Part shown: positions 1-63,006 of the stretch, one piece after another
Numbering within the stretch: position 1 is the first letter of the stretch
How the letters are laid out: each line of letters starts with the position of its first letter
NCBI GenBank assembly: GCA_000002445.1
Contig: CM000207.1
Location: 320,001 to 384,000 of the forward strand
Length of the DNA stretch: 64,000 bases
Reading direction: 5' to 3'
Source of the DNA: Trypanosoma brucei
Lineage: Eukaryota
The notes under the pieces: model-generated
Seen by the model: the letters and a program-made list of their open reading frames with translations, nothing else
Told to the model about the DNA's origin: nothing
Databases searched by the model: none
Position numbers and translations under genes: made by a program

Positions 1-265
1 ACTTCCTTAAGGCCCTATATTATTTCTGAGCATGGCACAACGCCTCTGCAGCCCTTCACTAGTTCATGCATCCCTCTTCCTCCCTTGGAAGGCCTTGTTA
101 TTTCAATGTGCCGATATCCTAACCCTAACAGTAACGGACGGATAAGAAAGCATAAAATATGAAATTTCTGCCGCAATATACATGTGAGATGACGGAAAAT
201 AAACGGATTGTTTATCATTAAAGTTGAAATTGAGTGATAAACTCATAAAAAGAGTTTAAAAGAAA

Positions 266-724
266 TTAGCATAGCAATAATAATGATAAAAATAGTGGAA
301 GTTTGGACAACCAAAGGGTGTGTCTTTGAATGTACGTCGCAGATGGCACGCCACAATGTCCCAGTCTATCGAATTGCTCTTGGAGATGTTTGAAATACTC
401 GTTTTCACTTACTCTGTCGTTGGTCTCGAGGAGGGCGGTTGCTTCAACAAAAAGTAGGTCAAGCGTTGTGTAAAACTCACGCGCCCTCTGAGTGAGCTTC
501 CCTGTCTGGAGCGTCACCACTCGTTTGGATGTTCTGTTGCCGCTGCTTTTTTCTCTGGCATTGGCCAACGTGTGACCGAAGCGTTCGAGGAGCTCCGCGA
601 CGGTGCACAGGACGGACAACGAATTGTTGCTCTCTTTGGATCCGCCGTCTTGGGCAGCGAGAACCTGCCCGCTGCCAAGCGAAAGCTCAAGAACAAGTTC
701 CCAGAGAAACCCAAGTCTGCTCAC
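266..724 (-). pseudogene. 152-codon minus-strand ORF with no in-frame ATG (its first codon is GTG). Probably a gene fragment or non-coding.
   Basis: Plus 722-724 is cac, so the start is GTG, and the translation has no internal Met. The ORF is in the same orientation as the downstream unit. I recognise no family. Confidence 0.15.
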
Positions 725-879
725 ATCTTATAGAATGCTTAAATACTGAATCAAGGGAATTTAAACAACTAGGGAAAGGACGAAAAGGCGATTAATAACC
801 GTACCTACTTTTATCACGGATATGAAAGATCTCACTGCTCCTTTCCATCAAGGACATTGTCAGTTGATACGAGCAGATA

Positions 880-3100
880 AAACTTAATTCACCCAAACTA
901 GCGAATTACTACTGTAGTGTGGACCGGTAAACCACCAAAAATCAGCAAATCCCGAATAAATGTTACAAAGTTCCCCCAATGTTACAACAGCGGTCGCAAA
1001 CGAACCCGCAGTGACAATGGCCAACACACACACACCCTCAATTTTTTGACAACATTGTCCATAATGTAATCCAACAAAGGAGGGCATGGTTGGTTTCGTC
1101 AAAACTACAAAAGTTCTTAACCCTAACAAACTGGACAATCACACACAACGAGGCACAGTAAACTACCGAACCCCCTAGGTACCACAAGGAGAAAAGCGAA
1201 TCGCGACCACCACCAACGAACATTGCAGTCCGATCACACTAATCGGTCATAAACAGGCAATTAACCTCTGTGAATGACACTCTTATATCGCGCAGCTGCT
1301 CAGACATTCTAACTCACGCAGACCCCGAAAACATCCCAAACTACAGCAACAGCATATTTCAACAGAGATTAACTTCCCGCAACTATTCGAATGAACGTCT
1401 TCAAGCTTCCAGCACAGCCTCACCAAAATGTACTCCAAATACATCACTGAACAAAGACACCAGGATGTACACAAACATCCAAATAGTAAATTACAATTTA
1501 AAAGAAACCGTACACCACAGCTCAATATACAAATCTCAGAGAGGGAAAAAGTTGCAAAGGCGGCTGCTTCAAGACAAAAAAAAAAGAAGCCAAAAACAAA
1601 GACAAAACCTACTAAAGCTGGTGGCGGTGACATGACTAGCAAAAACAACAACAAAGAAACACAAAGATAACACCATTCAGCAAGGGAAGCAGCAGCTGTA
1701 CCGCAGCAGCAAAATAAAGTCAGGACAAGGTGTAGTGACTCCTAGAAATGCCAACAAAAACAAGCCTTTACCCAGAAAGGGTAAGCCAGATAGTAATTGC
1801 AGGTATATCTTCATAACGTAGGAGTGCATTCCACCACAGCGAAAAGTTCACAGAAACACCCAACATACCTGAAAGTTTAAAAAAATTATCAGCGGGATCC
1901 AGACAACATATAAGTAAAAAGTAAACCAACTGAGAGCAGATACTATACCAACCGGCATCTGCAAAGGTAACCCACAAACCCAAACACTAAACAAGGGCAT
2001 CCCAACACGAATAAAAGCAGATAAAAGGCCCCAAAATAAACAAAAAGCCAGGAAGGGCAGCAGTTCCAACAACCAACAAAAAAAGCTCATACACCAAAAC
2101 CTTAGCTATAGCAAAGGATAGCGAAGCGCATCCAGGCGGAAATGCCACAGCAGCTACGACTCCGGCGAAGAAACACAACAACGTAGGCAGCAGGACCCAC
2201 TACCCGAAGGGTGCGGAGTAATCCCTACACTGGAAACATGAAAAAAAGCTAAAAAAACAGTCCCGTACGTCTTGCTGCTGCCACGCCTGCCACCCTGCCA
2301 ACACAGAGCAAAACACCGATGCGAACGCAAAAACAGCAAATGCGCAGAGACAAAGGGACCCAAAGAGACCTGACTCACAATAAGGTTGTGGGCTCGACTT
2401 GCACAACCCACGATTCCAACAATACGTCACAGCAGCAATTGAAGTAATGAAAAAAACGCACAAGATGCCACACCAAACATATTTCGTGCGACATAGCATG
2501 TTCCCTAACCTAAACATCAATGACCCAGCCATAGCAGAAGATAAAAGAGAATAAACATAATTATCTACTGCGGATTTGAGACGTTGAAGAACACATCTCT
2601 TCGGCTCAACCACTTCAATACAAAATAAGCAATGCAAACACACAACCCAAATTTACAGACAGAACAGCTGATGTTTAACCCGCTTTGCGTATCAACTGAA
2701 ATCAAAATCTTGGATTTTTCCAATCCCATCCAACGGATTTAGAGGAACATCTCTAACCAGACATGCTGGTCATAATCCTTCTCAGCAGTATCCGCAAAAA
2801 CGCCTGGTGGCAGAAGTAAAAAACTAACAAAAAATGGCGAACCCACCTAGGTTTTAAAAAGTCATCGAAGGTATCAAGAGCAACAAAGATAATCACAACA
2901 AAAGAATTAACTTTAAACAGACAGGTAAGAAAGCAAAAGAACAACTTCATGGTAATAATAGCACTATCACGAACAAAGGGTCTCTTTTAGAAATGCTGCA
3001 CCGCATAACCCACGTGTACGAAAACACGACACTCACTTTCAAAAAAGCTACAAATACTAAGCAATAAAGGAAGCGGAAGTAATCAACATAAAATTACTGA
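880..3100. other. A ~2.2-kb strand-skewed block, C+A-rich on the plus strand and G+T-rich on the minus strand, with no intact gene.
   Basis: Plus-strand composition is visibly dominated by a and c (acaa, caaa, ccac motifs). The minus strand yields multiple short hydrophobic ORFs in all three frames (884-1138, 1283-1654, 1848-2090, 1987-2181, 2200-2643, 2753-2950), but none has a convincing ATG or continuity. Confidence 0.5.
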
Positions 3101-3204
3101 AAGCAAAAAGCAAAAAAAATATTGTTATTCATGTCAGGCCCTTCGTTCCCTCAGTTTATCAACAACACAGTGGGGATTTTTTCCAATCCACAGCACAATA
3201 CCCT

Positions 3205-3477
3205 TCAACTCGAGAGTGGTATCAATACCACGAGTTCTTCACTCAAAAACGCTTTGCACTCATCAAGATCCAATTCCTCCAACCCCTTCAAAGTTTCTAG
3301 ACTCCTCAAACCTCCTAATATCTCACAGTTGCGCGGGTTCAGCTTCTTCAACTTAGTCAAATTCTTGGTTACATCAACATTTGAAATTCCTTTGCAACCT
3401 GATAGATCCAGTTCCTCAAGGGCCACCGAACCACGCAACACCACCAAACTGTTCAAATTCACCCCGCATCCAGACAA
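3205..3477 (-). pseudogene. Leucine-rich-repeat fragment of the T. brucei ESAG8/LRRP type: an ~24-aa repeat (L..L..L.LS.C..I.dV..L..L) without an ATG.
   Basis: The translation contains VALEELDLSGCKGISNVDVTKNLTKLKKL...LEELDLDEC. Its first codon is TTG (plus 3475-3477 caa). The frame upstream continues an LDLSGC motif but is interrupted by stops. The antisense frames are long and open, as expected for LRR repeats. Confidence 0.4.
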
Positions 3478-6350
3478 ATCCAGCCTTCTCCAGCACCCTC
3501 TCGCGACTCCTCAAACCGTTTATAAATCGACGACTGCCCGTCTATTCAATCACCCCCAAGTTCTCTCGCTATCTGATCCATGTTAATATCCTCAGGTTCC
3601 CTCTAACTTTTCCCAACACCTTAATTACATTGTTGATTTAACGTAAAAGTTAAGGGTTAGCCGGCTTGTAATCTGTCACAGGCTCCCAACACAAGGGACA
3701 TCTCCGAAGTTTCGCGGCACATGCGTGGTAGAACATATTTCTGCAGGGTAAAAGTTCCAGTGTTTCTTCACCTCAGTGGCCTAAACATACCGCGCATATG
3801 CCACATTCGTCGTGAAAAAAAAAAAAGATATCAATACAAGAGAAACCCGCCATGAGTGTATCCTATCAAAGGAAGTGGTTCCACTTAGCCTCCTGTTACG
3901 ACCATTGGGCTCTGATACCGTGATGTGGTGGATGGCATGGCAACGGAAAACCTCGTCTGCACAGCTTCGCTGTTGCACCTTCTTTATGTGCTTAAGCTTC
4001 TCACAAATCGCCACCAGTGCAAAGCTTCCTTTACTTCGCCCTTGGAATGTAATAATAAATGTTTTGTGTTTAGTTGACATCCGCTCGCTTACACTCAAAC
4101 TTTCCCATGCATCAGCCACGGTTGAAGTTGTGTATGTACAACGGGTTTGCGAAATTTACCGCCTCGGTTACGATTTAACGACTGTAGAGGAATAAATAAA
4201 TTATGACACTCGAAAACGGGTCAAACTTTCCTGTTGACTGTTCACAAGGTTTAAACTCTAAATTTTTTTTCGAAACAAAAAAAGCAGCAGGAGCCCGTGA
4301 AATGCTCCTGCTGGACCCTCTCTTACATTTAACTGAGAGAACCGGTTCTTTCGCTTTTTTTCTTTTGAGGTTAATGGAAGGGCTCACATAAGATCAATAT
4401 ATAAACGGTATTAACATCATTGCAATCACCCTTTCGGGTCCATCGACAATAATTCCTATACGAAGTTACGTGATGTCCCTTTAGCATCTCTTTTACAGAT
4501 AACAGTTACAAATTATGGTTTCTCTCCTCATTAGCTCCGTTTACTCCCACAGTTCTTATGAAGGAGTGCACTTTATTTAATCCGATTATCCAGTCATAAC
4601 TGCCTACCCTGACAGTTTGCACAAAAAACGTGTCGCTATGCTCCAATTTGTATATCGAAAATATTGTATTTGTTACAAGCATAATTGTTATTTTAGTTTT
4701 ATTTTTTTTAAAAGAAAAATTTAAAGTATCGCTCATACACATTTTTTTGGATGTTTTTGTTCTTCAACTCCTCTCGGGGAGCCCTACTTTAAGTGTGGAG
4801 CGAAAGTGCTCATGAGTCCCATCCGTCACGATTCCGGAGCAAATGACGGCGCATTAAAGCTGTCGCGCCCAACATGCGGAAAAACACTCCCCAGACGAAA
4901 CGGGTCCTACACTTCACATAAAAAAAAAGATGGACAATTTCCGTCTGATGCAAAAATAAACAAATAATAATCACACACCGACACGGCAACTGCGAAGAAA
5001 TGTTGGTGCACTTTCCGTGGACAGCAGACTGTAAAGGAGTATTTGTGCAGTATAAATATGTTCTCTTGGAGACAACTTGCATGGTTTCTCCTCGTGGAAG
5101 AAAAAAATACTTCCAAATACCACCACTCTCTCCTCAGTGAGTGAAGAAACCGCACACCAATTCCCCATTTTTATCACATTTTCTTCACTCTCCGGGAGGA
5201 TTCTCCGAAACAAACATTATGCAAAATTACTGTTGTAACGAACAAAAGGAGATTTTAAATAAATAAAGCATCCTCTAACTGCGTGCAAAGCAGTTACGGA
5301 GAGGTAAAGGATGTAAAAGTAACAAGAATTTATGTCAAAAAGAATTGCTAAGCGGTGTTTATGGGGGTGCGCCTAATTGAGGGAACTTCCCGTTTAGTTT
5401 GCATTACACCGCACCCCAACAACGTTACAAGAAATATATACATCCCGTGCCAGAAGGCAGTGCATGTAAATGAAAGGAATCCTCAGTCCTACTTAATAGC
5501 GGCATCTATAATATCGGATGTGTCTCGCAGCTTCGGTTAATGACCGCGGAAAGTGATGGCAAAGTCCCACAACAACATGGGAAGAAAGAAAAGTTATACT
5601 TATGTTGAGGAATGAGTGGAGATTAACGGTATGATTCTTGTCTCTTAGCGCAAGTCGTGTTGGTGATTTCGCATGCATCAAACCACCCGAGGGCAAGTGG
5701 CGCAATTACAAAACCATCATAAAGGAGTGTCGTGTCATTCTAACTTTTACTGCTTGATGGGGGGAAAAAAAAGAGGTAGGTGCAAAAGCGACATCAAAAT
5801 AGGATACGATACATCTCCTTTTCATCCATTTAGATTTTCTCGCTACCAATTTAGCCAGTAAACGTTTGTGTAAAACGAAACCACGCCTCTCAGTTATTTC
5901 CTCACATTGCTACAACTTTAGTAGTTGCACGAACTTCTAGTGATTATAAGGGAGGGGGAAGGAAATTTATACTGAACAAAAGGCATTTTCTCCTGCCTCC
6001 GACGCGGTGTCAGTGTATGGGTGGGAATGGTCTTCCTTCCGTCACTCAATGGCAGCAGCTGACGTTAGGGGAAAACAACAAACCCAATAAAAAAGAAAAG
6101 TTAAATGTGGATGATCAACAAACGGCTCAACTGTAAAAAACAGCAAACTGATAGTCGTATAATAATGTCACTTCTCTAAGTTTCTGTTTCCCTGCTCCCC
6201 CTTTTTTTTTTCGCTTATATTGAATTCTCTTCATTTCATCTTACTCTATCATCTTTGCATACGTTCGGTATTTCATCTCATCCTTTAGAGCCTCTCTCCC
6301 CCTCTTTCCTCTCCCCCCCCCCAATTGCAGAGGGAGCATAATATATTCTA

Positions 6351-8831
6351 CTACTGTGGCTGCTTTACTTCCTCTGCCACGACACCGATTTTAACGGGGT
6401 AAATGAGCTCAACCAACTTATCCCAAGTTACTGCCCGAGTGTTCTCCATGTTCCCGTACTCACTACGTGTGCAAAGGATCATATCTGCCTCGGTTAAGTT
6501 GCTCTCAACTGTGGCACCGCCCTCCACAATGATGAGGTTCGCCGTGTTGAGATGTCTGGACGAAACAAAACCCTCACTGAATCCAATACGTTTCCGTGCG
6601 ATCGGCAGTTTCACATGTCGGAAACCATACGACAATTCATCAAGCCACATTTTTTGTTTCGTTGACTCATGTACGTATGCCTCGGGAAGTATCCAACACC
6701 CGCGCACAAGAGCTGTCAAGAGTTTTACTGTTAACTGCCCGTTGGTGACTAAGTGGGTTAAATTCGTGGGGACCGGTGAGTTGGATTTACACTCGGCAAC
6801 TGTGGCGTACGGAAGCTTGTGAATTTTCTCAAGTAACTCCGTTCCGTCAAAACCGCTGATTGTAAAAACACGTTGCTCGACGGATCGGCTCCTCTTCGCT
6901 TGCTTACTGGCGGATGGAGGCACATTAGCCGATTGTATGCCCCGAAGGCACACGTTCCCACCTCCAAAATGAAGAGACACGGGCGAATGCGAAGCGTTCC
7001 GCACCGAGCGGCGGAACTCCTCATCCAGTCGCTTCTCAAGCAGGGAACATCTACTCGTGACGGCAGCGAGCTCGATTTCCATATTCTCCGCCCTCTTGCA
7101 CATGGTAAGATACTTGACGCGCAGTTGCTCCAGCTGTTTATCAGTTTGAGATGCCTGTTCGACGGCATGCTGCAGACGCTTCCTATCACACTCCGCTTCC
7201 TCTAGCTTGGATCGAAGATCAGACATATTTGTGATTGCTTCTGTCTCATATTTCATTTTTTCTTGCCTTACAGCGGACAGCTCACTCTCAGTTTGCATCA
7301 ACTTCACTTGCGCCGCGGCCAACTTTTCCTTCAATTCCAGCATATCCTGTGAATAAACAGTTTCAGTCAAATCGTACTGTTGCTGCAAGTGCTGAGTGCG
7401 CTCCTCAGCCTGAAGGAGTTCGCTGCGGGCGGTTTCAAGTTTATCCACCGCAGAGGCGCGGTCACGCTCAGCGGCTTGCAGGGCATTCCTCATCGTGATG
7501 TTCTCACTTTCCAGATGGCTTAGTTGCTCTTCACGCTGCACTATTAGTGCTGCGGCTGCGGATAATTCTTCCGCTGCCTTCACTGCTTGGCGCTTCAAAA
7601 AGGATGTTTCTTCTTCCAAAGACACCCTCCCATTCTTTGCTTCCCGAATGAGAATTTCGGATTCCTGTTGCTGCTGGCATAAAGCAAGGTGGTGTTGGTC
7701 CCGGATACTCCTTAACTCCTTTTCGTGTTCTTGGGTCATTTGTTTAGCCTCAGCTTCGAGCATGCGAACACGGTGTTGTAGATTTGTGATCTCCTCCGAA
7801 AAAGAACCGGATTTTCCCTTGAAGACCTTCAACTCCTCACGGAGCTCATCAATGATTTCTTCCTTGGATGAAATTATCTTCTTCATGCGGTCGTTATTCG
7901 TCGCCATTAGGGAGTCAAGAGCTTCACTTTGGGAGCGCTCAGTCTTCTCGACAAAGATCTTGTGCATGTTTTCCAATTCTGCATAACGAGTCGTGCACGA
8001 TTCCAGGGAGCGTTGGAGTTCGTCACATTTGGCTTGGGTGGACTTAATATTGGCACGAAGGAGTTCATTCTCCCTACCCAGACGGCAGGCTTCTTCACGA
8101 CTCTTCACGTTGCTTTCGTCTAGTGCCTCGATATCTTCCGTTAGTTTGGTTATTTGCTCGCGCATGAACTCCGTACGGCCACTGCCTTCAACTTCCGAGC
8201 GCCCTTCCACCTCTGCTAACTGACGGCAGTGCTCTTCTTTCATAGCTTCCAACTGCTGTTTGAGGAACTCCTTGTCTCTACTGCTTTGAGAAATCGATTT
8301 TTCCAACTGCGCCTCTGAGTTTCGCCGTGCTTTGGCCTCCTTTTCAGCTTTGGCCTCTGCTTCGTCAAGTTGCTCCTTAAGAGTTCTCGCGTATTCACGC
8401 GTTGTTTGTAACTCCTGCTGTGTTTGTACGAGCTCAAACCGCACAATTTCTAATTCTCGCTGGTTACCGGACCACCTTAACTGCTCACGCTTCAGTTGAG
8501 CGATACGCGCTCGCAACTCATCTATTTCATGAAGCGACGCAAAACTTGCATTCGACACCGACTGCCTGCACGAAGCTCGTTGAGAAGTACTGTGAATAAA
8601 TCGCGCTGAGGAGGGACCTGAACTCCCTCCCAATTCTTCCACCTCCTTTGCCATGCCTTCTCCCACCATCAGCAACTCCCCGGGTCTCGAATTCTCGTCC
8701 GTCTCAACCCCTCCTCCAGTGGCTTCCGGTATGGGATCGGCGAGGTGAATACTCTTTTGCAGCCAAAGGCTGTCCGACTCACTGATGCTCATTGAATCAA
8801 TGCACTTACATTTAAACACATGCGTTGCCAT
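6351..8831 (-). CDS. Coiled-coil protein (826 aa) with two BRCT-like regions at the C-terminus.
   Basis: ATG confirmed (plus 8829-8831 cat). The central ~500 aa have heptad-rich E/K/Q/L coiled-coil composition. The C-terminal VFTISGFDG...LTHLVTNGQ.TVKLLTALVRGCWILPEAYVHES matches the BRCT pattern (F.G...THLV...T.K...A...G..IV...W), followed by a second weaker BRCT-like block. A polypyrimidine tract on the coding strand abuts the ATG. Confidence 0.7.
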   Translation of the reverse strand: MATHVFKCKCIDSMSISESDSLWLQKSIHLADPIPEATGGGVETDENSRPGELLMVGEGMAKEVEELGGSSGPSSARFIHSTSQRASCRQSVSNASFASLHEIDELRARIAQLKREQLRWSGNQRELEIVRFELVQTQQELQTTREYARTLKEQLDEAEAKAEKEAKARRNSEAQLEKSISQSSRDKEFLKQQLEAMKEEHCRQLAEVEGRSEVEGSGRTEFMREQITKLTEDIEALDESNVKSREEACRLGRENELLRANIKSTQAKCDELQRSLESCTTRYAELENMHKIFVEKTERSQSEALDSLMATNNDRMKKIISSKEEIIDELREELKVFKGKSGSFSEEITNLQHRVRMLEAEAKQMTQEHEKELRSIRDQHHLALCQQQQESEILIREAKNGRVSLEEETSFLKRQAVKAAEELSAAAALIVQREEQLSHLESENITMRNALQAAERDRASAVDKLETARSELLQAEERTQHLQQQYDLTETVYSQDMLELKEKLAAAQVKLMQTESELSAVRQEKMKYETEAITNMSDLRSKLEEAECDRKRLQHAVEQASQTDKQLEQLRVKYLTMCKRAENMEIELAAVTSRCSLLEKRLDEEFRRSVRNASHSPVSLHFGGGNVCLRGIQSANVPPSASKQAKRSRSVEQRVFTISGFDGTELLEKIHKLPYATVAECKSNSPVPTNLTHLVTNGQLTVKLLTALVRGCWILPEAYVHESTKQKMWLDELSYGFRHVKLPIARKRIGFSEGFVSSRHLNTANLIIVEGGATVESNLTEADMILCTRSEYGNMENTRAVTWDKLVELIYPVKIGVVAEEVKQPQ

Positions 8832-41832: not shown

Positions 41833-41868
<36 letters not shown>

Positions 41869-44403: not shown

Positions 44404-47400
44404 TTACCGCAGGTCTTCTGACACCTCCGCAACAGTGTGAGAGTGTCGGTCCTTTATTTTCTTCGACGATGTCCTCTTCTTTGTATGACCGCTGCTTCCT
44501 CTATCCTTTTCATCTGCTCCTATCTCTATTTTTGTCGCACTATTTCGTGATTTTTTGTGCGACATTTTGGTTTGAACAGCGTTGAGGTTGAGTAGGGCTG
44601 CTTTTTCCATTTCTTCTGAGAAAGGGTACTGAATTCCAATTCGGTCTGCCATGGCCATGTACTCCGCTAATTTGTTCTTCATGGGAACAACTTCCCCAGC
44701 AAGCATCTGCAGTTCCGCCTTCAGTTGCTCAACAGAGGCGTCATCACCTCCCTCTTTTTTGCGCAGAGCCTCCCTGGCTTGCCTAAGTTTAGAGCGCAAC
44801 CGTTTGTTCTCTGTCGTGAGCAGTTGCAGCTTTTTATCCGCTCCATCACCATTTACTGTTTTCTCGTCAACAGGGAGAATAGATGCGACTGGTTCAGCGG
44901 CACTCTCCAACTGCTGCTCAAGTTGTTGAATCTTTTCCTGCAACTCTTCCACCTGCCTCTCCAGGTCGTTTGTTGTGTAATCCTGCATTATACGCAGCTT
45001 CTCTGTGAGGTCAGCAATACTTTCCTTCAGCTTCCCATTTTCCTCTTGCAAAACCGATAGTTTGTCGTTAGATTCTTTCAGTTGCGCAGCCAAACTCTCA
45101 GCCTCCCTCTCATTTCCAACACTGCGATATGACGGGCTATCAGCACCGTGCGCCAGTACGTCCACCGCAGGGCCGTCATCAAAGCGAACAAGCGATAAGA
45201 GGTCGGTGTTTGGTTGCTTTTTCTTCTTTCTCCTGACTGGCAATGTAACAGCACCACTGACAATTTGTTCAGCACGCGCTGTTTGCAGCTTTTCTTCAAG
45301 TTGTTCGATGCGCCTACGCATAGCCGCTGCATCATCGTCTAACTTCTTCCTCTCTTCTTCAAACCTTTCATTGACCTCTGCAGAACTTCGTTCCTGCTCC
45401 TCTAACTGCCGATGTGCCTCTTTAAGAGTAACCCTTAACTGATCTACTTGTACACGCAGAGCAGTAACATCCGAATCTTCCGCCGCAGCGGATGAAGCTC
45501 GAGCAGCAACGCCACCGGCGGCTTCTGTGGATTGACGCAATTTGTCAAGTTCGCTTTCGATATGCAACCGCTCTTCTTCGACTTGATGCAACTGGGCACA
45601 CAACCTTCCACTTTCATTCTCGTACCTCTGCCTTTCTTCTGCTATGCGAACCTCCATCTCCAACTCCTTTTCATGCCGAACTGCCTCCAATTGATCATTT
45701 ACAGTTACCATTACACGACGTAGCTCCTCCTTCACGGCCTCCAACTCACTGCTAGTCGCCACTATCGTGGAGAGCAACTTTTCTTCTTGATTAGACTTTT
45801 CCTCCACCAAGCACTGATATTTATTCCTTTCCAGCTCAAGCGCGCGGTACTCATCCGTTAACTTTGCCATCTTCTCGTTGGTATTGGTGCACATCGCGGT
45901 TTCAGAGGCTAGACGCTCGGCAATTAATCCTAATTCAGCGGAGTGAGCAGAGCGAATTTGTTCGTTTTGCCTCAGTTGCTCCTCGTTCTCTGCCTCCAGT
46001 TCGTCAATCGTTTGACGGTACACCAAAAGCTCGGAGGTGAGCCGATCAATATCAGAAACCATTTGTTGGTTTTCGCTTACAAGTCTCGTGTTCTCGACCA
46101 TTACCGAGCGAATATCGTCAGGAACAAAGCTGTTACTCTCTAACTGTGCAGCAACGGTCCCTTCGCTTGCAACTGCGCGCTCACATTCGACTCCGCCAAC
46201 ACTAGTCCTTTGTTCAACACAGGCCCCAACGCCTTTGGTATCGTTAGCACCTCCACACTGCCGCATAACTTCTTCCATACGAAGCTGCAGTTCGTTTAAT
46301 TGGCCTTCGAGTGTAGTATTCTGGCCGCACAGTTTGTTATTTTCTTCCATCAGGCGACACACCTCCACACGAAGTTCCGCGCTTTCTTTCACAAGCGCAG
46401 CAACCTCGTCCTCACGCGACTTAAGAGTTTGCCTCTGGTTGTCTACAGTGTCCTGAAGACTCGCTCTCTCCGAACCCACACGTTGCAAGTCTGCTTGTGT
46501 TTCCCCCAGTTGCACTTTCACAGCTTGTAAAGAGAATTCCAGTGCCGTGCACCGTGCCTCAGTGTCACTTCCCGTATTCTGTCTTTGTGCTTCCTCTAAC
46601 TGAGTGATTTCTTCCCTAGCTTTTAACAATGCTTTTTCCGACTCCTCAGCACAAGAAAGACGCTCTCGTAACGTAGAAACCTCTTGCTGTAGCTCAGCTA
46701 CGCTTGTCTCAAATTGTGGTATTTTTTCTGCTTGCATGCGAGCCCTGTCAAGCTCCAACTGAGCTGCTTCGTAGTCACGAGAAAGCTGATCCCTTTCCAC
46801 CCTCAAGTTGTTGATATCAGTCGTAAGAGTTTCACATTGTGCCTCCAGCCCACGAAGCCGCTCCTCGTCATGTTCTTTTGTGGTTGCGAAGTAGGTTGCT
46901 TCCTCTTTCATTGCGGAAGATAGATCCGTCAGCTTCCCATTTTCTTCAGTAACTTGGGCAAGACGCGACTCCAAGATTGAAATCTTCTCCATTGCAGCCT
47001 CGTGTTGGTGTTGAGCGTCCTCGCAATTTTTGCACGATTTTGGCTCATTCATCGAGGCAGTCAGTAGCGTATCAACATCATAACTGGGTGCAGTCAGTTT
47101 TGCCTCCGCAGAACAACTCTCATTTTGTCTGATCCTATCTTCCAACTCTCTCAGTTTTTCGGTTAATGCCCTGTTCTCGGCTTCCACGTCCTTGTGCATG
47201 CTTGATTCAGTGGCAAGGTTTTCACGCAGATCTTCCAGCTCCTGTTCGTACCGTGTTATCTTGTCATGTAATTCCTGCTGCTTCTGCTCTGCGACGCTGG
47301 CACTGTCACATTCCTCCCTCGACGCTTGAAGCTCCCATTGTTGTTGAGTTAACTCCGCGGTTTTTGCTTGTAGTTCCGCTTGTAGTCGCTGTAGTTGGTC

Positions 47401-49221
47401 CCTCAATTCATCCTCTCGTATGCGATGCCGGTCAACCTCACTTCGTAAATCGTTGAACACCAAACTATTGGCCTCCAGTTCTTCCATACGAAGCTGCAGT
47501 TCGTTTAATTGGCCTTCGAGTGTAGTATTCTGGCCGCACAGTTTGTTATTTTCTTCCATCAGGCGACACACCTCCACACGAAGTTCCGCGCTTTCTTTCA
47601 CAAGCGCAGCAACCTCGTCCTCACGCGACTTAAGAGTTTGCCTCTGGTTGTCTACAGTGTCCTGAAGACTCGCTCTCTCCGAACCCACACGTTGCAAGTC
47701 TGCTTGTGTTTCCCCCAGTTGCACTTTCACAGCTTGTAAAGAGAATTCCAGTGCCGTGCACCGTGCCTCAGTGTCACTTCCCGTATTCTGTCTTTGTGCT
47801 TCCTCTAACTGAGTGATTTCTTCCCTAGCTTTTAACAATGCTTTTTCCGACTCCTCAGCACAAGAAAGACGCTCTCGTAACGTAGAAACCTCTTGCTGTA
47901 GCTCAGCTACGCTTGTCTCAAATTGTGGTATTTTTTCTGCTTGCATGCGAGCCCTGTCAAGCTCCAACTGAGCTGCTTCGTAGTCACGAGAAAGCTGATC
48001 CCTTTCCACCCTCAAGTTGTTGATATCAGTCGTAAGAGTTTCACATTGTGCCTCCAGCCCACGAAGCCGCTCCTCGTCATGTTCTTTTGTGGTTGCGAAG
48101 TAGGTTGCTTCCTCTTTCATTGCGGAAGATAGATCCGTCAGCTTCCCATTTTCTTCAGTAACTTGGGCAAGACGCGACTCCAAGATTGAAATCTTCTCCA
48201 TTGCAGCCTCGTGTTGGTGTTGAGCGTCCTCGCAATTTTTGCACGATTTTGGCTCATTCATCGAGGCAGTCAGTAGCGTATCAACATCATAACTGGGTGC
48301 AGTCAGTTTTGCCTCCGCAGAACAACTCTCATTTTGTCTGATCCTATCTTCCAACTCTCTCAGTTTTTCGGTTAATGCCCTGTTCTCGGCTTCCACGTCC
48401 TTGTGCATGCTTGATTCAGTGGCAAGGTTTTCACGCAGATCTTCCAGCTCCTGTTCGTACCGTGTTATCTTGTCATGTAATTCCTGCTGCTTCTGCTCTG
48501 CGACGCTGGCACTGTCACATTCCTCCCTCGACGCTTGAAGCTCCCATTGTTGTTGAGTTAACTCCGCGGTTTTTGCTTGTAGTTCCGCTTGTAGTCGCTG
48601 TAGTTGGTCCCTCAATTCATCCTCTCGTATGCGATGCCGGTCAACCTCACTTCGTAAATCCCTAAACATAACATTTTTTGATTCATCTTCGTCCTGAGCA
48701 ATACGAACAGTGACTGCAAGTGGACTACGACTTATAACCTCTTGTTGGTCACGCACAACCGCAGAGAGCTTTTGAACGTTGGCGTGCCCCTGCTGGACCT
48801 CCATCAGTAACTTTTGCACTTCGCCATTGGATGAGGTGTGCTGGGCTCGGAAGTCGGTGAATTCCTTGCACAAATTGTCTAATAACTTCTGCAGGTTTTC
48901 CGGCGTGGCTGTCTTTGAGCTTCCAAACAATTTAAACTTATCCCGTTCATAAAGTGCTTTAAGCACAGGTGTTTCGGAAAATATGTTGGTACTATAAGTT
49001 TCACACCTCACTTGCATCTCCGCTACAGTTCCAGAAAGTTTTGCATTCTCATCACATACCTTTGTAAGCACGTCCGTGAGCGACTTATTCTCCCGCTCGA
49101 GTTGCTTAACCCGCTTGACCAGTGCATCGGCCTCTTCAGTGGATTGCACAATTTGTATTGCCTTTACAGGTTGCTGCGCCGTCGGGCCGTTGTCCACATC
49201 GCAGTGTCCGGATGCCTCCAT
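44404..49221 (-). CDS. Giant coiled-coil protein (1605 aa) containing an internal, perfect ~403-aa tandem duplication.
   Basis: ATG confirmed (plus 49219-49221 cat). It has E/Q/L/R/K-rich heptad composition nearly throughout. The block FNDLRSEVDRHRIREDELRDQLQRLQAELQAK...QLNELQLRMEE occurs twice in tandem. Confidence 0.85.
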   Translation of the reverse strand: MEASGHCDVDNGPTAQQPVKAIQIVQSTEEADALVKRVKQLERENKSLTDVLTKVCDENAKLSGTVAEMQVRCETYSTNIFSETPVLKALYERDKFKLFGSSKTATPENLQKLLDNLCKEFTDFRAQHTSSNGEVQKLLMEVQQGHANVQKLSAVVRDQQEVISRSPLAVTVRIAQDEDESKNVMFRDLRSEVDRHRIREDELRDQLQRLQAELQAKTAELTQQQWELQASREECDSASVAEQKQQELHDKITRYEQELEDLRENLATESSMHKDVEAENRALTEKLRELEDRIRQNESCSAEAKLTAPSYDVDTLLTASMNEPKSCKNCEDAQHQHEAAMEKISILESRLAQVTEENGKLTDLSSAMKEEATYFATTKEHDEERLRGLEAQCETLTTDINNLRVERDQLSRDYEAAQLELDRARMQAEKIPQFETSVAELQQEVSTLRERLSCAEESEKALLKAREEITQLEEAQRQNTGSDTEARCTALEFSLQAVKVQLGETQADLQRVGSERASLQDTVDNQRQTLKSREDEVAALVKESAELRVEVCRLMEENNKLCGQNTTLEGQLNELQLRMEELEANSLVFNDLRSEVDRHRIREDELRDQLQRLQAELQAKTAELTQQQWELQASREECDSASVAEQKQQELHDKITRYEQELEDLRENLATESSMHKDVEAENRALTEKLRELEDRIRQNESCSAEAKLTAPSYDVDTLLTASMNEPKSCKNCEDAQHQHEAAMEKISILESRLAQVTEENGKLTDLSSAMKEEATYFATTKEHDEERLRGLEAQCETLTTDINNLRVERDQLSRDYEAAQLELDRARMQAEKIPQFETSVAELQQEVSTLRERLSCAEESEKALLKAREEITQLEEAQRQNTGSDTEARCTALEFSLQAVKVQLGETQADLQRVGSERASLQDTVDNQRQTLKSREDEVAALVKESAELRVEVCRLMEENNKLCGQNTTLEGQLNELQLRMEEVMRQCGGANDTKGVGACVEQRTSVGGVECERAVASEGTVAAQLESNSFVPDDIRSVMVENTRLVSENQQMVSDIDRLTSELLVYRQTIDELEAENEEQLRQNEQIRSAHSAELGLIAERLASETAMCTNTNEKMAKLTDEYRALELERNKYQCLVEEKSNQEEKLLSTIVATSSELEAVKEELRRVMVTVNDQLEAVRHEKELEMEVRIAEERQRYENESGRLCAQLHQVEEERLHIESELDKLRQSTEAAGGVAARASSAAAEDSDVTALRVQVDQLRVTLKEAHRQLEEQERSSAEVNERFEEERKKLDDDAAAMRRRIEQLEEKLQTARAEQIVSGAVTLPVRRKKKKQPNTDLLSLVRFDDGPAVDVLAHGADSPSYRSVGNEREAESLAAQLKESNDKLSVLQEENGKLKESIADLTEKLRIMQDYTTNDLERQVEELQEKIQQLEQQLESAAEPVASILPVDEKTVNGDGADKKLQLLTTENKRLRSKLRQAREALRKKEGGDDASVEQLKAELQMLAGEVVPMKNKLAEYMAMADRIGIQYPFSEEMEKAALLNLNAVQTKMSHKKSRNSATKIEIGADEKDRGSSGHTKKRTSSKKIKDRHSHTVAEVSEDLR
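46270..48660. repeat. Direct tandem duplication with a 1209-bp period. 46270-47451 is repeated, apparently identically, at 47479-48660 (the second copy truncated by ~27 bp), inside the giant coiled-coil CDS.
   Basis: The left junction (ttcttccatacgaagctgcagttcgtttaattggccttcgag at 46270 and 47479) and the right junction (cctcaattcatcctctcgtatgcgatgccggtcaacctcacttcgtaaatc ending at 47451 and 48660) were located by eye. Identical plus-strand ORF translations recur at 46300/47509, 46714/47923 and 47166/48375, consistent with ~100% identity. The period of 1209 = 3 x 403 preserves the frame. Confidence 0.9.
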
Positions 49222-49645
49222 TTGTCTCTACGATGATGGCACCTACCTTTCTATGTTTATTAGAAGATCGGTAGTTATCTTCAACGTATTGTTAGTATTA
49301 TTTTTTTTATATTAAAAAAAAAAAGCGTCGGCGTATGTGCGACGAGGCGTGGTGACGGGTCCAGTCGTCACGTCACTTTGTATGGTTTCTAAATGATGGC
49401 AAGGGCACAATGATGACAACGAGGTATAGAAAAAGACGAACAGAGGATAAAAAAATAATTTAAAACAAAAATTAGAGGGTTGTGTGGATGGCATTTTACG
49501 TACTCACAAACGTTGTCATTGTGACAAGCAAAATTATCGTACGTTTTATGTCCGCAAATGAAAAAGTGAAGTAAGAGTGTGGAGAAGAGGGGAAGAGAAA
49601 AAAATTCCACACCAATAAAAGGAGATAGATAGAGGAACGCCGCGC

Positions 49646-49873
49646 TTACCGGGGAAAGCGTGTGTTGTGTAGTGCAGTGCATTTATCAAATCCCTTCACC
49701 TTTAATTGAGACTTAGGGAGAGTTGTTCCGTGGCCGTTAAACACATATTCCAGTGGACAACACCGATCCCAACAGACTCCACATCGTTCAACCATTTGCT
49801 TTTCATTCCATGCTGCTGTGCAAACGCGGTAAATGCGGCACCGAGACAAATATTCCCAAACCAGCGTGTCCAT
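49646..49873 (-). CDS. Possible small Cys-rich protein (75 aa).
   Basis: The ATG at 49873 (MDTLVWEYLSRCRIYRVCTAAWNEKQMVERCGVCWDRCCPLEY...) is in the unit orientation between two confident genes. Unverified. Confidence 0.2.
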   Translation of the reverse strand: MDTLVWEYLSRCRIYRVCTAAWNEKQMVERCGVCWDRCCPLEYVFNGHGTTLPKSQLKVKGFDKCTALHNTRFPR

Positions 49874-50015: not shown

Positions 50016-50669
50016 TCACTGGCGGCTTCCCGCAGCATCCAGAACCGCCAGATGATACATGCTATCCAGCAGCTGTTGCACATTCACCACCTGCTTGAAA
50101 GCACTCAACGCGGCTGTCAAAGCCATAAAGAACAGAAACGCAGGTTCAGCGATCCCATACACGCCGTACATATATAAGTTTAAGTAGAAAAGTTCCTGTC
50201 CGACGCAAAGTGCACACATAAACGGACGATTTGTATAATAAAGTCGCAGAAGTGAAAAAATACTGCTGCTCACGTCCTTATGACTAGTACGGCCAGCATA
50301 AAGCGACACGTACATGACGCAGAAATGCGAAGAAATATCCAGGAAAACAAGACATGCAAGCGAAGTGGCTCCCCAATGTGGAAGCGGTTGTAATACCTGC
50401 ACAACCACAACAATCAAACCAGCCGTTGACGCCCGATCCGTCAACATATCAAGTATCGCACCAAACTGTGTGCATTGGCCAAACCGTCGCGCTACCATGC
50501 CATCCACCGCGTCCAGCACAAAACCAATGATGTAACAAAATAAAAATGCAATGGGAAAGTGGCCGAGCAAGCAGAAGGAAATCAATGAAAGAATAACGCG
50601 TGTGTAGCCAATGAGGTTAGGGTAAAACAAACATACCTGCAGTGGTGTGGTAGTTTTAGCTTTCGGCAT
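50016..50669 (-). CDS. PIS: CDP-alcohol phosphatidyltransferase; phosphatidylinositol synthase (CDP-DAG-inositol 3-phosphatidyltransferase)-like.
   Basis: LDAVDGMVARRFGQCTQFGAILDMLTDR matches D-x2-DG-x2-AR-x8-G-x3-D-x3-D exactly. The protein is 217 aa with multiple TM segments, the size and topology typical of eukaryotic PI synthases. ATG confirmed. Confidence 0.85.
   Translation of the reverse strand: MPKAKTTTPLQVCLFYPNLIGYTRVILSLISFCLLGHFPIAFLFCYIIGFVLDAVDGMVARRFGQCTQFGAILDMLTDRASTAGLIVVVVQVLQPLPHWGATSLACLVFLDISSHFCVMYVSLYAGRTSHKDVSSSIFSLLRLYYTNRPFMCALCVGQELFYLNLYMYGVYGIAEPAFLFFMALTAALSAFKQVVNVQQLLDSMYHLAVLDAAGSRQ

Positions 50670-51733: not shown

Positions 51734-51770
<37 letters not shown>
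51734..51770. repeat. (AT)~18 microsatellite, the longest of many intergenic (TA)n tracts.
   Basis: Read directly. Similar (TA)n runs occur at 10973-10986, 21256-21277, 41837-41867, 43444-43461, 44069-44086, 54072-54087, 56634-56649, 58224-58237, 58438-58452 and 62975-62998. Confidence 0.9.
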
Positions 51771-51777
<7 letters not shown>

Positions 51778-62765: not shown

Positions 62766-62975
62766 TAACTTTAAGTACTTTTCCTTTCCCCTCTACGCTC
62801 TATTACTGGTAGTGCAACTCCACACTGAGGTGCCCGTGCGAAGTGTTGTAAAAAGAACACCTCACACTTGTTAAGCCTCTCACGCACCCAGAAATCGGAA
62901 TGCTTCGTTTAACACCCCACGCGTCTCTTATTTGTACCCTCGGCGTCCCACTAACCAACCTTGAGAATATTGAGA

Positions 62976-63006
<31 letters not shown>

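Follow-up and report, generated by a model that had tools for sequence, protein, structure and literature searches.

A probably old, later homogenised in-frame tandem duplication in a Trypanosoma brucei gene for a predicted rod protein

Background

Concerted evolution of tandem duplicates, whether by gene conversion or by unequal crossing-over, is a general phenomenon, and the duplication described here is a fresh example of a type of event well known in trypanosomes and not a new phenomenon. It lies in a stretch of 64,000 nucleotides (nt) of the Trypanosoma brucei genome (GenBank assembly GCA_000002445.1, contig CM000207.1, positions 320,001 to 384,000 of the forward strand), called the window below, within a gene for a protein of 1605 amino acids (aa) that is very likely, but not proven, to be Tb927.9.1600 (TZP182) and that is given the latter name throughout. 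A segment of 1182 nt occurs twice in this gene, in tandem and in frame, and the two copies are the same at every position. The best explanation of the observations as a whole, and one that we hold to be probable, is a single old in-frame duplication, the products of which were later homogenised. As in concerted evolution generally, the copies are more alike within than between genomes and a single junction is common to both genomes, the differences being that the units of TZP182 lie inside one open reading frame (ORF) and that there are only two of them.

The closest analogue of TZP182 is p197, a T. brucei protein of the exclusion-zone filaments in the tripartite attachment complex, which contains ~26 nearly identical helical repeats of 175 aa (PMC9546609). 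These repeats are specific to T. brucei, being absent from orthologues, and are a source of trouble for genome assemblies, and it has been established by experiment that how far the basal body lies from the outer membrane is set by the length of p197 (PMC9546609). TZP182 resembles p197 in having near-identical helical repeats that are specific to the T. brucei group and occupy the centre of a protein with conserved ends, although the two are without sequence relationship. They differ in that TZP182, as assembled, has two units with a period of 403 aa and a unique linker of 9 aa as against ~26 units of 175 aa, in that the TZP182 unit includes a motif conserved in orthologues, and in that a role in setting length has been demonstrated for p197 and is conjectural for TZP182.

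A further comparison is provided by the orthologue in T. vivax (KAH8618798.1 and KAH8618833.1), which lies in a syntenic position downstream of the PIS gene and in which the rod has likewise been lengthened by tandem repetition. The T. vivax array differs in consisting of ~1.8 kb of imperfect units of 51 bp or 81 bp (17 or 27 aa, with 68-98% matches) and in occupying another part of the rod, and it is an event independent of the T. brucei duplication. The occurrence of independent expansions in the two lineages implies that the rod has been repeatedly open to tandem expansion. The T. vivax units (GCA_021307395.1, SOPI01000070.1, locus 4675-6445) read RVRELEAENHTLGEQAQ with or without RADKVAALEQ. 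The orthologue is divided there between gene models of 1398 aa and 232 aa, probably as the result of a frameshift in the assembly.

Extent, frame and uniqueness of the repeat

The boundaries of the repeat were set by laying the window against a copy of itself shifted by 1209 nt. The two copies (Table 1), designated A and B in the order of the protein, correspond in an unbroken run of 1182 matches, and on each flank the identity falls within ~10 nt to a background of 0.2 - 0.4. An exact repeat of this length cannot have arisen by chance. The copies are arranged head to tail and are separated by 27 nt, giving a period of 1209 nt or 403 codons, so that the reading frame is kept within the single ORF. 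At the protein level the two copies share 394 identical residues and the 27 nt between them encode the nonapeptide LEANSLVFN. The first-pass annotation of the window had claimed 1182 bp without differences and a frame-keeping period of 1209 bp within one coding gene of 1605 aa, and both statements proved to be exact; its description of two identical modules of 403 aa is right as to the two modules and the period, but the identical part amounts to 394 aa and the 9-aa linker is unique.

The search with Tandem Repeats Finder used a longest period of 500 and was thus blind to a period of 1209 nt, and the seed for the repeat family was a single 300-nt reference copy. No further long repeats were found in the 64-kb window, the only other repetition being intergenic low complexity of the (AT)n type. 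Diverged additional copies of the module were also sought elsewhere in the TZP182 protein, and only weak similarity of the coiled-coil type was encountered. The best of these weak internal matches (E = 0.002) is between residues 341-393 of the module, which form its end (aa 528-580 of the protein, 47479-47637), and aa 23-74 in the N-terminal region (49000-49155), with 38% identity over 53 aa (...ENNKLCGQ... and ...ENAKLSGT...). This resemblance could be an ancient internal similarity or could reflect mere coiled-coil bias.

The junction between the copies has no evident source nearby, as no template for the 27-nt linker was found in the 64-kb window with 3 mismatches allowed. The linker agrees with the sequence before copy A at 13 of 27 nt and with the sequence after copy B at 10 of 27 nt, both values being close to chance. 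Its end, NSLVFN, is loosely like the residues that precede the module in orthologues (…SLV/SLA before DLR), and the hexamer GTTATG is found in two places, 9 nt before copy A and directly after copy B. The linker may be filler DNA at the original junction or what is left, after decay, of the margin of an original unit that was slightly larger.

A single origin in the T. brucei group

Three genomes of the T. brucei group were compared, those of T. b. brucei TREU927 (the strain of the window), T. b. gambiense DAL972 and T. equiperdum OVI, and the protein cluster at 90% identity consists of these three sequences. More distant orthologues came from HMMER, run exhaustively over 1.8 billion representative sequences. 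The DAL972 orthologue lies at the syntenic locus in a gene of 4818 nt, is likewise 1605 aa long, and has repeat boundaries and a 27-nt linker identical to those of TREU927. Both assemblies in which the region is resolved, TREU927 and DAL972, thus have two modules and show no polymorphism in module number, the T. equiperdum assembly having a gap there. This gap, of 10 N, is situated in contig CZPT02000754.1 exactly at the start of the repeat (locus 3562-3571) and is followed by the last 32 nt of copy A, the linker and a complete copy B, which amounts to an independent recovery of the junction. The annotated T. equiperdum protein (SCU67486.1, 1221 aa) spans the gap and in consequence runs from the N-terminal flank straight into the final 10 residues of copy A, with the linker retained; it was considered as a possible copy-number polymorphism and rejected as the artefact of a gene model that reads across the gap.

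Outside the T. brucei group, orthologues were recovered from T. congolense IL3000 (1283 aa), T. cruzi marinkellei (1394 aa), T. grayi, T. vivax, Leishmania (chromosome 26) and other kinetoplastids. Both T. brucei copies match one and the same region of the T. congolense protein (approximately residues 211-670), and that protein lacks an internal repeat. The proteins of T. cruzi marinkellei and T. grayi are colinear with TZP182 through the N-terminal flank and the start of copy A and then continue straight into the end of copy B and the C-terminal part, and those of Leishmania and several other kinetoplastids also have a single module without an internal repeat. Synteny with the PIS gene is kept in T. 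b. gambiense as well as in T. vivax. Since the duplication is shared within the T. brucei group and outgroups have a single module, the sequences point to one origin in the T. brucei-group lineage, and the duplication arose once, after T. brucei and T. congolense had split and before the lineages of the T. brucei group separated. A second gene model of 258 aa in T. congolense IL3000 (TCIL3000_9_180, CCC92628.1) is nearly identical to the C-terminus of the full-length orthologue and reflects either a redundant stretch of the draft assembly or the duplication of part of the gene.

Why the two copies are identical

An important consideration is how copies that are shared by separate strains come to be identical within each of them. 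In total, 44 nt of the gene distinguish TREU927 from DAL972. In the 2454 nt that are not repeated there are 19 differences between the strains (0.77%), and in the repeat unit there are 12 differing sites (1.0%), each of which is changed in both copies and 8 of which alter an amino acid. Within a genome, copy A differs from copy B at no position in TREU927 and at only one in DAL972, where a synonymous change is confined to copy B. The two copies within a genome (0 - 1 differences) are thus closer to each other than is either copy to its counterpart in the other genome (12 differences). Had the copies been independent since before the strains split, ~12 or more sites would be expected to differ between them, and the Poisson probability of observing none is ~6e-6; nor would changes be expected to be common to both copies. 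The combination of 12 shared changes with 0 - 1 differences within each genome implies that sequence was transferred between the units after the haplotypes had separated, and the pattern is accordingly read from these alignments as what appears to be concerted evolution of two units, by gene conversion or by unequal exchange in cycles between two and three copies, two routes that the data do not distinguish. Gene conversion had been put forward in the first-pass annotation; its homogenising effect is borne out by the shared substitutions, but unequal exchange fits them too and the notion that the process is ongoing is less firm.

A probable course of events can be outlined. A 403-codon segment from the central helical rod would have been duplicated in tandem and in frame, once, in the lineage of the T. 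brucei group. Homologous repair between the units may subsequently have taken the form of intragenic gene conversion, of unequal sister-chromatid or allelic exchange, or of both, and mutations arising in either unit would in this way be erased or copied into both. Homogenisation would end where homology ends, leaving the 27-nt junction and the flanks to evolve separately. The outcome would be a rod extended by 403 residues, most of them helical, with unchanged N- and C-terminal ends and with one conserved internal motif doubled. If the additional residues form an unbroken coiled coil with a rise of 0.148 nm per residue, the rod would gain at most roughly 55 - 60 nm. A gene reduced to one copy by unequal exchange would be without the linker, and homology could not expand it again; were unequal exchange the route, forms of the gene with more than two copies would therefore be expected.

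Two of the 19 substitutions between TREU927 and DAL972 in the non-repeated part (F186L and R187M, at window positions 48666 and 48662) lie no more than 6 nt from the left boundary of the repeat, a clustering for which the probability, calculated post hoc, is 0.001 - 0.015. It gives only a hint that the ends of conversion tracts may be mutagenic or heterologous.

Alternative explanations and the number of modules

Identity of the copies in TREU927 over 1182 bp is what a very recent duplication would produce, the copies having had no time to diverge, and such an origin was among the explanations offered in the first-pass annotation. It is contradicted by the comparison with relatives, as T. b. 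gambiense possesses two copies and an identical, non-templated 27-nt junction and T. equiperdum possesses the same junction. A duplication younger than the divergence of the strains could not be shared by them, and independent events would not recreate the junction. The gene has, moreover, since diverged by ~0.8 - 1% between TREU927 and DAL972, including the 12 sites changed in both copies, and with 44 differences between them it is hard to argue that the DAL972 locus was copied from the TREU927 reference; a very recent origin is accordingly regarded as most improbable. Just as little weight can be given to the proposal that the second copy is an artefact of assembly and that the real gene has one module and encodes 1202 aa. 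The single module of the outgroup orthologues and the shorter annotated protein of T. equiperdum are in its favour, but the succession of repeat end, unique 27 nt and repeat start is present in three assemblies, the T. equiperdum contig included, and the 1221-aa model from that species contains the linker even though it crosses the gap. The frame is also kept, and a false join would not generate 27 novel nucleotides in frame.

A rival of a different kind is that the true gene has three or more modules that assemblers have collapsed to two, which would alter the count only and is compatible with a single old duplication later homogenised. A unit of 1.2 kb at ~100% identity outruns Sanger or Illumina reads, the T. 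equiperdum assembly is broken exactly where the repeat begins, and an arrangement in which repeat units alternate with linkers through three units would fit every sequence examined. The precedent of p197 is relevant here, for which TriTrypDB and the TREU927 assembly give 3.5 identical repeats and long reads and gels ~26 (PMC9546609). On the other side, the TREU927 and DAL972 assemblies each give exactly two copies, and the nucleotide private to one copy in DAL972 suggests separate read sets and copies that were assembled separately, not pasted one from the other. The name TZP182 reflects predicted mass only and is neutral on the number of modules. On balance a larger number is thought unlikely, although its probability is by no means negligible, and since the unit at 100% identity exceeds the length of Sanger and Illumina reads the count of two is to be read as at least two.

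There are also points that weigh against the preferred explanation, a single old duplication with later homogenisation. All of the evidence comes from assemblies and not from reads; the DAL972 genome, which we take to be a Sanger assembly ordered against TREU927, is for that reason not fully independent, and the building of a consensus over near-identical repeats could mask a few true differences between paralogous copies. The single-copy state of T. congolense rests on a draft assembly, and the explanation does not account for where the 27-nt linker came from. Finally, the 12 sites may go back to an early divergence of copy A from copy B, settled one way in one lineage and the other way in the other by as few as one conversion in each, and that homogenisation is ongoing is not strictly proven.

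Architecture and conservation of the protein

The remainder of the protein was considered by alignment of ten kinetoplastid orthologues and by structure prediction. Conservation is concentrated in islands, namely an N-terminal block at approximately residues 40-160, a motif within the module near KALLKAREEITQLEEAQ, LVYRQTIDELEAENEE just past the module, and the C-terminal KLAEYMAMADRIGIQYPF, and outside them the rod shows little conservation across these orthologues. Between aa 23 and 220 the identity with the Leishmania orthologue is 41%. Besides more of the helical rod, the C-terminal part holds two conserved elements, the island LVYRQTIDELEAENEE and the C-terminal motif KLAEYMAMADRIGIQYPF, together with a KKKK patch.

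E, L, A, Q and R are the prevailing residues in TZP182, and a crude, uncalibrated score for hydrophobicity at a and d positions is raised along most of its length. A single-sequence AlphaFold2 model of aa 150-640 (mean predicted local distance difference test score 74.6) consists of helices of 66, 67, 101, 51 and 155 residues with one helix break at approximately aa 305-327, and places the linker LEANSLVFN within the continuous helix of 155 residues. These predictions fit a rod or coiled-coil protein. As 403 leaves a remainder of 4 on division by 7, the heptad phase would not be able simply to run on across the junction. Searches of Pfam and of PDB sequences with TZP182 gave nothing significant, nor did Rfam and a tRNA scan of the gene and its region.

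The gene and its locus

The protein encoded in the window is identical, residue for residue, to XP_803449.1/EAN76283.1/Q38FY7 of T. b. brucei TREU927, chromosome 9, on a record of 3.06 Mb. All 22 ORFs of at least 200 aa in the window are on the minus strand at spacings of 0.3 - 2 kb, the content of guanine plus cytosine is ~45%, and the layout is that of a trypanosomatid polycistronic unit. The neighbour on the higher-coordinate side (50016-50669, minus strand) encodes a CDP-alcohol phosphatidyltransferase. PIS is Tb927.9.1610 (Tb09.160.0530), on the complement strand, and since it adjoins on that side the repeat-bearing gene has the next lower identifier. The entry for Tb927.9.1600 in a phosphoproteome supplement reads TZP182, hypothetical protein, conserved (PMC11408851). 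The predicted mass of the window protein, 182,197 Da, fits the number in this name. In the transition-zone proteome published by Dean et al. in 2016, TZP names are said to carry the predicted mass.

The coordinates of the gene and its parts are collected in Table 1.

Table 1. Parts of the TZP182 gene, in window coordinates
Feature	Position	Strand	Remarks
Whole gene, 1605 aa, 182.2 kDa, acidic, alpha-helical	44404..49221	-	Single ORF; exact-sequence look-up
Non-repeated N-terminal region (aa 1-187)	48661..49221	-	Holds the best-conserved kinetoplastid block, ~aa 41-160
Repeat copy A, N-terminal in the protein (aa 188-581)	47479..48660	-	Identical over 1182 nt to 46270-47451
Linker, duplication junction, sense CTGGAGGCCAATAGTTTGGTGTTCAAC, LEANSLVFN (aa 582-590)	47452..47478	-	Unique in the window
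Repeat copy B, C-terminal in the protein (aa 591-984)	46270..47451	-	Identical over 1182 nt to 47479-48660
Non-repeated C-terminal part (aa 985-1605 + stop)	44404..46269	-	Translation, orthologue alignments

The assignment to Tb927.9.1600 is subject to two qualifications. The published phosphosite S32 of Tb927.9.1600/TZP182, the sole datum encountered at the level of residues, has no counterpart in the window protein, which has S27, T28 and D32, so that either the table was built on another gene model or strain sequence, or the link of the identifier to this protein is imperfect. The annotation of T. b. gambiense also includes an ORF of 102 aa between PIS and the repeat-bearing gene (locus 2539-2847, corresponding to window positions ~49375-49680), for which a Pfam search gave no match; if this ORF is annotated in TREU927 as well, the inference of the gene identifier moves by one.

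Little has been written about the protein. According to the source data for Fig. 5i of TrypTag, Tb927.9.1600 localises to the flagellar pocket, in its 'ventral' subcompartment. In the literature searched, which did not include the transition-zone proteome paper, the gene has no mention in a main text; it is absent from one other phosphoproteome supplement and the EATRO1125 genome paper is silent on it. TZP182 is thus a protein annotated in the reference genome and associated with the cytoskeleton that is essentially unstudied.

Some other features of the window may be noted. The first 6.3 kb (1-6350) contain no ORF longer than 154 aa and the remainder is dense with minus-strand genes, and AT skew over positions 1-4000 is strongly positive (~0.24). 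Intergenic (AT)n microsatellites of 15-19 units occur at 41837-41867, 51734-51771, 62975-63000 and elsewhere, the second of these being an exact (AT)19 between two minus-strand genes.

Implications

The finding has practical consequences for work on this gene. The T. brucei reference may give too short a length for TZP182, as it did for p197, and between aa 188 and 984 short-read mapping, the design of RNA interference or CRISPR (clustered regularly interspaced short palindromic repeats) experiments and the quantification of peptides are ambiguous between the units. The locus also constitutes a clean two-unit case of concerted evolution in coding sequence, with an origin that can be dated to the interval from the T. 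congolense split to the radiation of the T. brucei group.

The length of the rod may have an effect on the structure of the flagellar pocket or transition zone. It is conceivable, though a distinctly long shot, that the number of modules acts as a length setting, a ruler or tether, for a structure peculiar to the T. brucei group at the flagellum's base or the ventral flagellar pocket, that this number varies between isolates and perhaps exceeds two, and that conversion keeps the array free to grow and shrink. If the length of the rod does matter at the flagellar pocket or transition zone, the lineage-specific extension of ~46 kDa would provide a simple handle with which to test it.

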